DNA of 36,051 nt from the NCBI GenBank assembly GCA_000934665.2, contig JYFJ02003947.1:1-36051 (forward strand), read 5' to 3'. Below, one piece after another: positions 27,901-30,900 of the stretch (positions are counted from its first letter, which is position 1; each line of letters opens with the position of its first letter). Source of the DNA: Catajapyx aquilonaris. Taxonomy: Eukaryota. The notes beneath the pieces were generated by a model that was not told where the DNA came from, searched no databases, and worked only from the letters and a program-made list of their open reading frames with translations. The position numbers were made by a program, and so were the translations under genes.

Positions 27901-30900
27901 AGTCCGTAGCTTAATTTTTGTGGCCTGGGCGATTCGTGTCCAAATCCAGAAAACTGAGAAAACCGCGTTTCAAGTTAAAAGATTCCGAAGGTTGTTGCCG
28001 GGCAAGGTTACCAGGAGTCGGCTCCCAACGCGCCAATTTTTTGAATTTCGGGACGCGGTGTGCCGCGTTCGAAGCGGGAAAAGACGCTTGATTTTTTTCA
28101 AAGCAAAACAAAAAACAAAAACAAAAAAAAACACTATTTTTTGCAGGTCGATGACTGTAGTGCCCCCTTAACATAATTCAGATTACATTGCATGGGTATT
28201 GTGACAATGCCACCCACATTGAGATTGCTTTTAGGATAAAACAAGTCAAATATTAAAAAGAAAAAAAAACTTGAGTTTATCTCTATCTCGGCAGTCTGTT
28301 TTGGTACATCCTGTGAGGTTTGACCTCTCTCAATCATTCTCTGGACCAGCCCCCCACAACTCCCTATCTTATGGGGAAGGCCGTTCGCTTAGCGAGTCCC
28401 CTATCCCCGGTTGTGGAGTCCCGCATACCCGGATGTGGAGCCGCATTCAGGCTGACGACTTATGAACTGTTCTAAACCCACCTGAATTGTCAATTCCCAT
28501 TCAGCCCTCGGCCACAGATCCAACCATCAGCCACCTGAATGCGATTTGGACTGTTCCAAATCACATTCCGGCTGGTGAGGTGGATCGGCAAACTGGGGCT
28601 GAATAGGAATTGACAATTTAGGTGGGTTCAGAATGGTTCAGAAGTTGTTAGGCCCAAATGCGTTTTGGTACAGGGCTCCACATCTGGGGACAGGGGACTT
28701 GCTAAGCGCACGGGAAAAGAGGGGGAGTTGCGGGTGGCTGCTCCAGACCCTACAGGGCCACTTACGGTTGTCGTCATTGTACAAGAACACACATTGCAGA
28801 CAACCTGTTGATTCAACCAGCCTCTACTGAGGCAGCTACAGATCTTTTACAAAAACCAATCTTGTACAGTGCAGTGGTGGAAATTAATGGACATCCACAA
28901 GTATCAATGCCTGGAGGAGCTTTTCCTTTACATGAAGCTGCTTCATGTAAAGGAAAAGCTCTGCCAGGTGCCGCTATTTGTGGATACCCATAAATTTCCA
29001 CCACTGTGCAACCAACTGCACCCCACATGCCACCCACTGGCAAATGTCCCAATTGATTCAACCCATTCAAGTGAGAGCGGCGGATGTTGCTAACTACATT
29101 TCTTAAAGTGTTAAGACTTTTTTTACTGAATTTTTGTGGAATGTTGTATTTTAAATAAGAATGAGGAGGAGACCTAGAGTATGGATTCCAGGTTTTTGTG
29201 GTGCAATTTGTTCCATTTTTCCTATGTTTCCAAGTTGAATGTAGCAACCTACATTGTTTTGTATTAATTGTCATATTGAATTCTTCTTGCAGGGATAATG
29301 GTGATTGAGATGGTTGATGGTGAACCACCATTTTTCAATGAGCCACCCCTGCAGGCAATGCGGCGGATTCGTGACATGCCACCACCTAAACTGAAGAATA
29401 TTCACAAGGTGTGTTGAGACTCTTGTGAGATAATACCACGAAATCTATCAATTAGTTACAGCGGTTCCCAACCTTTTTTCACTTGCGTACCCTCTGGCGG
29501 CCCATTCCCATAAATTGTACCCCTTATCCCTAATGGAGAATGTTTGTAATAAATACCTGCTGTTAGGGGAGGTGTGGTGGCCGTGATGGTAACGTCTTGG
29601 CTTGCTGAGTGAAAGGCCCCAGGTTCGATCCCCGCCTGGGGAACTTTCCTTTCACCTGCGTCAGGAGGGTCTCTGACCTGCACCAAGGAGGTGTCTGGCA
29701 ACCTATAACCTCCTGGGGAACAGAACATGACCCCTTTACAGATCTTGCACTTGCACCTATGTTCCCTCCCCAAAAATCCCTACCCCTACCCTACATCCTT
29801 GTCTCCTTGCACCGGTGTATGAAGTTAATTCAGAAAATGGAGTGAAATGGTGGTATTCCACCCCCCTAAAAAGGCTCAGCCTTATCACGGGGTAACGTTT
29901 AAAAAAAAAAAAACTGCTGTTATTTAAAATATAGGCTGTAACTGGAAATAAATTAATCAGTAATAGGATAATAATGCAAAGCAACCATAAGATATACAAA
30001 GCATATATATTTTTACATTCAAATTCAAATGATACTTAAAGATTAACATATGTAATTATTATTAATAGTTAATATGCGCACACACTTCCATATATTTGGA
30101 ATCTTGTTTCATGAATAACATAGCACACAGGAAATGTTCAGTGAGATCCTTGACCTTGTTTTGAAGCACATAATTTCTTGAAATCTGACTGAACATATTT
30201 GCCAGGTGCAATATATTGATTAATCCGCCATTGCTCCTTTTCTTTCGCGTACCCCTGACCATCCTGCAGTGTACCCCCGGGGGTACGCGTACCCCAGGTT
30301 GGGAACCGCTGAATTAGAGTAACAGGAGATGGCAATCCCTGTAATCATAGCAAGACAGGATTTTCATTTCAAAAGAAATTTATTGTTTGTCTTGATTCTG
30401 AGGCTTGCAACTCTTGTCTAAAGCATACCCTCAGTACTGCAGGACTTTCATATTGGGGGCACAGATTAGTTTAGTCCTGTAATAATTTCAAGACTAGTTT
30501 TGGCATCTGGTGTGGTTCAATGTGTGGTTTTCATAGGACTTGTATGGCTACATTTAAAAATACAGGGGTACCTCATACTTCGAACTTCATTCGTTTCCGG
30601 AGGCAGTTCGACCTCCGAATTGTTCGAAGTCTGAATCAATTATTTTACCTATTAAAAATAATGCAAGGTGAATTAATCCCCATTCCCAGACCAATTTTGT
30701 CACACAGTACTTCAGTTTCCTGTGGGGAAGGTGCTGTGGCCGAAGTGGTAACTTCTCGGCTTGCAGTGCAAAAGGTCCTGGGTTCTAATCCCCGCCTGGG
30801 AGTTACCTTTAGCCTGCGTCAGTGGGTCTTTGGCCCGCACCTAAGGAGGCGTCTTGGCAACCGGTCTCCTGGGGTACTGCACATGACCCTTTTCCGACAT

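Follow-up and report, generated by a model that had tools for sequence, protein, structure and literature searches.

The 36,051-nt contig JYFJ02003947.1 of Catajapyx aquilonaris (assembly GCA_000934665.2), analysed at full length and called the window here, carries a PAK mbt gene and several short interspersed elements (SINEs), four of which share a body module. This module comprises two candidate hairpins, P1 and P2, a strand complementary to the P1 loop and a TTGCAC(T)TGCACC motif. It had been predicted, from the letters of the window alone, to be a selected and pseudoknotted RNA. Our analysis points to a feature that is real and rather ordinary. The module is a conserved central (body) domain common to SINEs with differing heads or tails in one genome, and it probably holds one selected hairpin, P2; a pseudoknot and catalysis are without support. 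The module-bearing copies, with the names used below, are as follows.

29566 to 29913, plus strand: SINE copy 29566 (348 bp), with a degenerate tRNA-like head, the body module, a CT-rich stretch, tail hairpins and poly(A) at 29901-29913
30724 to 31068, plus strand: SINE copy 30724 of a second subfamily, with a T-rich tail
34078 to 34196, plus strand: module of chimeric copy 34083, with the head and body of a tRNA-Ser-type SINE upstream (33885-34064) and a tail with (TAA)n downstream, to 34331
311 to 703, minus strand: SINE copy 610 of a divergent family, with the same module, another 3' part and an (ATT)n(GTT)n tail

Target-site duplications flank three of these four copies: 9 bp at copy 29566 (CTGCTGTTA, 29557-29565 and 29914-29922), 11 bp at copy 30724 (CTTCAGTTTCC, 30710-30720 and 31069-31079) and TGTATGCG(A/G)GT at copy 610 (715-705 and 310-300). 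The empty site of copy 29566 was also found: DNA contigs from paralogous copies of its host element join 29556 to 29914 (9 ambiguous letters). Although its duplication is clean, copy 30724 has no A-rich tail and finishes with 15 consecutive T (31050-31064) and then AATT. A profile built from the four copies and searched against the window matched exactly these copies (29625-29876, 30787-31030 and 34058-34262 on the plus strand, 646-395 on the minus strand; all E <= 3.8e-43). The next-best match, 19990-20077 (E = 1.6), is not a SINE copy. The 3' part of copy 610 aligned poorly with the other copies.

Public DNA contigs from the same organism were placed on the SINE-bearing stretch at 80% likeness, a pile-up that yields letters per site with no linkage between sites. 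Each DNA run contributed 2686-3304 contigs. Summed word depth in run X1 reached ~340,000-400,000 across the head and module, compared with ~14 in the single-copy flank, and the SINE family is therefore very abundant. As summed word depth is not an exact copy number, it gives a rough sign of ~10^3-10^4 copies. ARAGORN and the Rfam tRNA model recognised only three heads, all of the tRNA-Ser type described below and none on a module-bearing copy, where a B-box-like GGTTCGATCC is visible. The module-bearing elements are best explained as highly repeated SINEs that depend on long interspersed elements (LINEs) and carry tRNA-like heads.

A stop-free frame of 196 codons spans the whole of copy 30724 (30475-31065, plus strand). 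It looks like chance, because every frame of the other copies contains stops. A coding origin of the module was rejected, with frames not conserved and stops in three of the four copies. Used as a protein query, the open frame gave no locus in viral contigs, no candidate in the protein collection and two spurious loci in metagenome contigs, unmatched by the SINE profile. A 17-mer scan of viral contigs returned 27 loci, all of them chance matches restricted to the 17-mer, and a second viral scan returned none.

Within the copies, the elements of the module lie as follows.

29660-29664 and 29673-29677, plus strand: candidate hairpin P1 of copy 29566, GTCAG-GAGGGTCT-CTGAC
29667-29671, plus strand: GGGTC in the P1 loop of copy 29566
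29686-29692 and 29708-29714, plus strand: P2 core of copy 29566, AGGAGGT and ACCTCCT, in a hairpin that covers 29683 to 29717
29729-29733, plus strand: GACCC of copy 29566, complementary to GGGTC at 29667-29671 (candidate pairing, unproven)
29745-29757, plus strand: conserved TTGCACTTGCACC motif of copy 29566, present in all four copies
30818-30822 and 30830-30834, plus strand: P1 of copy 30724
30824-30828, plus strand: GGGTC of copy 30724
30844-30850 and 30864-30870, plus strand: P2 of copy 30724
30885-30889, plus strand: GACCC of copy 30724
34090-34094 and 34104-34108, plus strand: P1 of copy 34083, with an additional 6-bp extension
34117-34124 and 34138-34145, plus strand: P2 of copy 34083, AGGGGGTC and GGCCCCCT
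34160-34165, plus strand: GACCCC of copy 34083
34178-34190, plus strand: TTGCACTTGCACC motif of copy 34083
579-573 and 557-551, minus strand: P2 of copy 610, GGGTGGT and ACCACCC
516-505, minus strand: TTGCACTGCACC of copy 610

Every string and coordinate that the original prediction gave for the four copies proved correct. The common order it described begins with P1 and P2 and continues with a joiner (10-15 nt as predicted, 14-15 nt as observed), the complement of the P1 loop and the TTGCAC(T)TGCACC motif. All four copies show this order, including 34078-34196 on the plus strand and 625-505 on the minus strand. In the pile-up, the family consensus directly 5' of the TTGCACTTGCACC motif reads CGACA, and the subfamily consensus of copy 30724 has C at 30830, C at 30865 and G at 30902. 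The TGCAC word of the motif returns ~50 nt downstream in three copies, giving three TGCAC words per element.

29745-29757, plus strand: motif of copy 29566, with the repeat CTTGCACC at 29808-29815
30900-30912, plus strand: motif of copy 30724, with the repeat CTTGCACA at 30963-30969
34178-34190, plus strand: motif of copy 34083, with the repeat CCTGCACC at 34226-34232

Pair counts were made on a MAFFT alignment of the four modules and compared with 500 shuffles and with slid controls. For the whole three-helix model, 89% of cells were paired (1 of 500 shuffles reached this) and the covariation score was 0.48 against 0.28 in shuffles (0 of 500; slid controls <= 0.21). This signal comes from P2, because splitting the model left P1 and the pseudoknot helix at the level of shuffles. 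With its 2-bp extension, P2 was paired in 97.2% of 36 cells (2 of 500 shuffles reached this) and changed on both sides in three of nine pairs (5 cells). Its covariation score was 0.611 compared with 0.300 +/- 0.097 in shuffles (1 of 500), with slid controls at <= 0.296. Among the four copies, one pair occurs as A-U, G-C and U-A, a second as U-A and C-G, and a third as A-U, G-C and G-U. The predicted compensatory change in P2 is thus borne out above shuffles.

The 7-bp core of P2 is lengthened by CC/GG over a 1x1 mismatch, to about 9-10 bp. Its loop has 15 nt and contains CTGGCAAC. In about half of the family depth it has 13 nt: 81355 of 172862 depth units in the pile-up lack 2 nt at 29704. P2 was predicted by RNAalifold and lies in both the minimum free energy (MFE) and the centroid structures of the two full-length plus-strand folds. 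At the subfamily consensus of copy 30724 it reads as a perfect AGGAGGC/GCCTCCT, the mismatching letters being private to that copy, which strengthens the U-A to C-G exchange relative to copy 29566. Taken together, the alignment supports selection on P2 at the RNA level, with pairing apparently kept as the stem letters change.

Several points weigh against this reading, and some of them also favour an account with no selected RNA structure at all. The copies would then be alike through recent common ancestry, P2 would be an inherited inverted repeat, and its paired changes would have arisen by chance or by alignment slippage. Only four sequences were aligned, two of them close relatives, and such counts can beat shuffles when no structure is present; in trials of the method, 5-25% of alignments of related but unconstrained sequences outdid nearly every shuffle by score or by percentage paired. 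P2 lies in G-run and C-run sequence, whose stems pair in shifted registers too (at a slide of -1, 72% of cells). The loop of copy 610 is unlike that of the other copies, and the isolated modules fold no more stably than shuffles (z = -0.73, +0.59, -0.61 and -1.90). What P2 does in the transcript is something we infer, and the likeness to termite SINEs described below consists of three short motifs chosen post hoc and a reading by eye.

Against common ancestry alone stands the nature of the substitutions. Between copy 29566 and copy 610, the four stem substitutions are all confined to two pairs, both of which stay Watson-Crick (A-U to U-A and A-U to G-C), and two further both-sided changes occur in other copies. 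The subfamily consensus lacks the disruptive letters, and two termite SINEs have, by eye, hairpins with different stems at the matching place. We regard the absence of any selected structure as unlikely, though it is the most serious of the alternatives to a body domain with a selected P2.

P1 and its loop behaved differently from P2. No pair of P1 (0 of 5) changed on both sides. For P1 together with the helix between its loop and the 3' strand, 84% of cells were paired, a value reached by 85 of 500 shuffles, and the score of 0.367 was reached by 68 of 500. The two both-sided pairs of the loop helix come from copy 610 alone, in a register with two internal mismatches. The compensatory change claimed for P1 and the loop pairing is therefore not above shuffles. 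Of the wider statements that pairing is kept while sequence changes, and that the RNA structure is selected, the part about P2 stands (1 of 500 shuffles; both-sided changes) and the part about P1 and the pseudoknot (68 of 500) does not.

Two further elements of the original prediction were revised by the pile-up and the alignment. The supposedly preserved G-U pairs of copy 30724 reflect private C-to-T decay of that one copy: it has T at 30830 and 30865, sites at which C is the family letter in 3387 of 3446 and in 1539 of 1679 depth units, respectively (run X1). The P1 (CAGAG/CTCTG) and loop pairing (GGTCA/TGGCC) proposed for copy 610 lie outside the columns homologous to the other copies. A P1 in the homologous columns would read UCAG/CUGG, and the lowest-energy fold takes a third register, CAGGG/CUCUG. 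With at least three possible registers, agreement at this copy is weak evidence.

We also estimated how often a 5-bp match would arise between a 7-8-nt P1 loop and the ~30 nt 3' of P2 in random sequences matched for composition. With the plus-strand copies 29566 and 30724 as models, the chance of a Watson-Crick match was 10% and 7% with mononucleotide shuffles and 19% and 12% with a first-order Markov model (p = 0.07-0.19 overall), and it rose to 14-81% when G-U pairs were allowed. Shuffling dinucleotides within such short pieces alters the order too little to be informative.

Predicted folds gave these strands another partner arrangement. In RNAalifold and in full-length folding of either plus-strand copy, P2 was retained and P1 lost, and GGGUC/GACCC formed the outer helix of a long hairpin that is nested and irregular. 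In the MFE fold of copy 34083, the GACCCCC strand pairs with the 5' strand of P2. The folding programs used cannot score pseudoknots, so these energy-based folds require no pseudoknot, yet prove no absence.

These results bear on the proposal that P1, P2 and a tertiary GGGUC/GACCC pairing form a selected H-type pseudoknot, serving either to scaffold a protein or reverse transcriptase or to resist nucleases. Both plus-strand subfamilies carry the complementary strands in their family consensus, the loop geometry would permit an H-type knot (loops of 2 nt and 1 nt and a long third one), and 84% of cells are paired in the loop helix. Among the variants listed, the pile-up hints that some copies have a GTCAGTGGGGCCC loop and some have ATGGCCC, which could be linked changes, although per-site letters do not join them. 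The termite SINE Taluc has, by eye, GGTC in a hairpin loop and GACC ~20 nt downstream of the hairpin. Against these stand the shuffle-level covariation, the sizeable probability of a chance match and the nested helix, which uses the same strands and is favoured by all energy-based predictions. An H-type pseudoknot would have both helices backed by covariation or by stability beyond chance, and this was not found. A selected pseudoknot is accordingly improbable, and it is not needed to explain anything observed. The P1 block appears to be conserved mainly as sequence, and the complementarity of GGGUC and GACCC is either fortuitous or the outer helix of the nested long hairpin.

Some SINE-like retroelements carry hammerhead ribozymes, and a module with two hairpins and a possible tertiary contact invites the same reading, a self-cleaving ribozyme or another catalytic RNA. 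At gathering thresholds, the only Rfam matches in the window were tRNA, at the three tRNA-Ser-type heads. Permissive scans of the four copies with 4227 models gave nothing relevant at E <= 10, self-cleaving families included, in agreement with the earlier remark that the module could not be fitted to the hammerhead, HDV-like, twister or pistol consensus. The sole overlaps with the module, mir-339 (22 bits, threshold 60) and mir-35_2 (E = 8), are hairpin-shaped noise. Apart from the TTGCAC repeat, the module has no conserved unpaired block resembling a catalytic core, and the tertiary pairing is without support. We consider catalysis extremely improbable, and the earlier suggestion of a ribozyme is not sustained.

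A body shared between unlike SINEs is also seen at a second, tRNA-Ser-type family, whose members have (ATT)n tails and whose heads ARAGORN and Rfam recognise as tRNA-Ser(GCT).

17289 to 17549, plus strand: tRNA-Ser-type SINE
24948 to 25216, plus strand: tRNA-Ser-type SINE
25326 to 25590, plus strand: tRNA-Ser-type SINE
33885 to 34064, plus strand: tRNA-Ser-type SINE, upstream part of copy 34083
946 to 767, minus strand: tRNA-Ser-type SINE, truncated
734 to 765, minus strand: fifth, partial instance of the module, a P2-like hairpin (GGAGGTT-18 nt-AACCTCC) joined to the truncated SINE 946-767

The five tRNA-Ser-type copies align well, and those at 33885-34064 and 946-767 leave the family consensus at the same column. 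Past this common break, the former continues with the full module and the latter with a lone P2-like hairpin. The stem pattern GGAGGY..RCCTCC matched twice in the window against 0.11 expected, and none of 100 shuffles had two matches. Two of the tRNA-Ser-type copies stand in tandem, 378 bp apart. The same body is thus found in two subfamilies, in a divergent family with another 3' part and behind a tRNA-Ser-type SINE. A common break column with either continuation agrees with published accounts in which SINE bodies are modules that can be exchanged (PMC5804259). In both SINE families the 3' end consists of a small hairpin and then ACGGGGTA, a common feature that suggests one partner LINE for both. 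No partner LINE was found in the window.

To place the module among known SINEs, we compared it with the consensus sequences of Talua and Taluc from the termite Reticulitermes lucifugus, two of the four termite SINEs printed in S4 Fig of PMC9191728. Both have a tRNA-derived head and then a body, an order shared with the module-bearing SINEs and their tRNA-like heads. Talua carries GTCAGGtAGaGGTCTCTG, which equals P1 and its loop in copy 29566 (29660-29675) at 16 of 16 letters with two 1-nt gaps. Taluc carries GCGgTCAGTGGG and TGCACAnGACC, like copy 30724. A pattern derived from Talua, GTCAGG(n)AG(n)GGTCTCTG, had its sole window match at P1 of copy 29566 (0 of 100 shuffles), and one derived from Taluc, GCG(n)TCAGTGGG, had its sole match in copy 30724 (0 or 1 of 100 shuffles). 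Exact matches to TGCACAnGACC were restricted to copies 30724 and 34083. These statistics are generous, because the motifs were picked after reading the sequences.

Reading by eye shows one hairpin in Talua and one in Taluc, placed inside the shared block or directly behind it. Their stems differ from P2 (GACGGG/CTCGTC in Talua and AGTGGG/CCCACT in Taluc), and their loop is a 7-nt CTGRTCA compared with 13-15 nt in P2. Talua lacks the TGCACAnGACC and TTGCACTTGCACC blocks, and the tails of both elements are unlike those of the module-bearing SINEs. Talua also has the P1 block without, by eye, a complementary strand downstream, which counts against a conserved pseudoknot. On these sequence comparisons, the module appears to be related, at least in part, to termite SINE bodies. 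With two of its blocks recurring in published termite consensuses, and hairpins of SINE central domains already in print, the earlier suggestion of an undescribed class is not supported.

Two papers (PMC5804259, PMC4758252) count nine to ten conserved SINE domains, those of arthropods being Nin, Inv and Pln and, later, V and CORE. They describe the Inv (alpha) domain of invertebrate SINEs as joined to Pln in SINEs of crickets, termites and cockroaches, and as forming conserved hairpins proposed to act as a template-switch signal. Taluc is named as an Inv+Pln element (PMC5804259). Compared by these descriptions only, the module resembles Inv, as a conserved body domain of insect SINEs with a hairpin. 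It likewise resembles, as a hairpin block within a SINE body, the Vhc subdomain of V-SINEs, for which Matetovici et al. (2016, PMC4758252) give a 37-39-bp body block in molluscs, arthropods and cnidarians with a predicted stem-loop that persists in the full-length fold. The sequences are unrelated. The CTCCGG...TCCGGTTTCCTCCCAC block of Vhc had no window match at <= 3 mismatches and the V alignments are unlike the module, so that P2 was rejected as a Vhc stem-loop. The bivalve form of the CORE block, GTACTGGTTGGTTCCAGGAA, which represents one lineage, also had no window match at <= 3 mismatches. Strings of the module turned up in none of the full texts searched and in no supplement of PMC4758252, PMC11481361, PMC4824008 and PMC5804259, a search that excluded supplement file 1 of PMC4758252 and of PMC4824008.

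One other block was searched for in the window. The GCGCTATAYAAATG-type motif of the Aply consensus, which we take to be Deu/Nin and which does not cover the 5' part of Nin, had one chance-level match at 3582-3595, outside the SINE copies. A different likeness is to stringent-type LINE/SINE pairs, in which 3' stem-loops are recognised by the LINE reverse transcriptase and pairing rather than sequence is kept. P2 is also a SINE hairpin with kept pairing, and the P2-like hairpin at 734-765 lies directly before an A/T-rich end. Unlike those stem-loops, P2 is ~200 nt from the 3' end in full copies, whose tails carry small hairpins of their own and then ACGGGGTA.

The surroundings of the SINE copies contain a gene and further repeats.

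12699 to 12974, plus strand: PAK mbt exon encoding the PBD
14274 to 14780, plus strand: Pro/Gln-rich open frame of the PAK mbt gene, with no family match
20311 to 20577, plus strand: PAK mbt kinase exon
22174 to 22488, plus strand: PAK mbt kinase exon
26765 to 27001, plus strand: PAK mbt kinase exon

The closest relatives of the PAK mbt exons are insect proteins (86-92% identity for the PBD and kinase exons; 86-95% per exon over the gene), with no single order prominent. The module-bearing SINE copies lie either upstream of the gene or beyond its last identified kinase exon. Copy 29566 is hosted by an element of ~850 bp bounded by perfect 16-nt terminal inverted repeats (CAGCGGTTCCCAACCT, 29459-29474 and 30296-30311), which looks like a DNA transposon of the miniature inverted-repeat transposable element (MITE) type. 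Large inverted repeats at 21190-21856, 18272-18958, 3232-3646 and 4310-4632 have arms of 114-329 nt that are 86-90% complementary, with short spacers, and look like foldback or MITE-type elements.

Our preferred explanation remains a conserved SINE body domain with a single selected hairpin, which we hold to be probable. Pairing of P2 would have been kept by compensatory substitutions as the source genes diverged. The constraint would act on the transcripts of source genes, because only copies competent for retrotransposition leave descendants. P2 may act in the SINE transcript as a binding or stability element for this competence or, alternatively, as a site at which template switching and the exchange of modules are promoted. 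A bolder version would see an ancient structured RNA domain of insect SINEs, ranging from termites to the present species, in which docking of the P1 loop onto GACC(C) further downstream would make a compact fold that recruits proteins of the partner LINE or blocks exonucleases. This version is quite improbable.

Central domains persist over very long times in unrelated SINE families, and the hypotheses offered in PMC4758252 and PMC5804259 are tail exchange, recombination hot spots and RNA stability. If true, a docked-loop domain would give a mechanistic reason for the persistence of these "highly conserved domains" of SINEs. Because the evidence comes from four copies, the value of the module is that of a lead for a genome-wide covariation test and not of a new RNA class. 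As it stands, the module is one more example of a known pattern. Pairing that is kept while stem letters change would nevertheless indicate a function at the RNA level, and P2 gives a defined hairpin to mutate.

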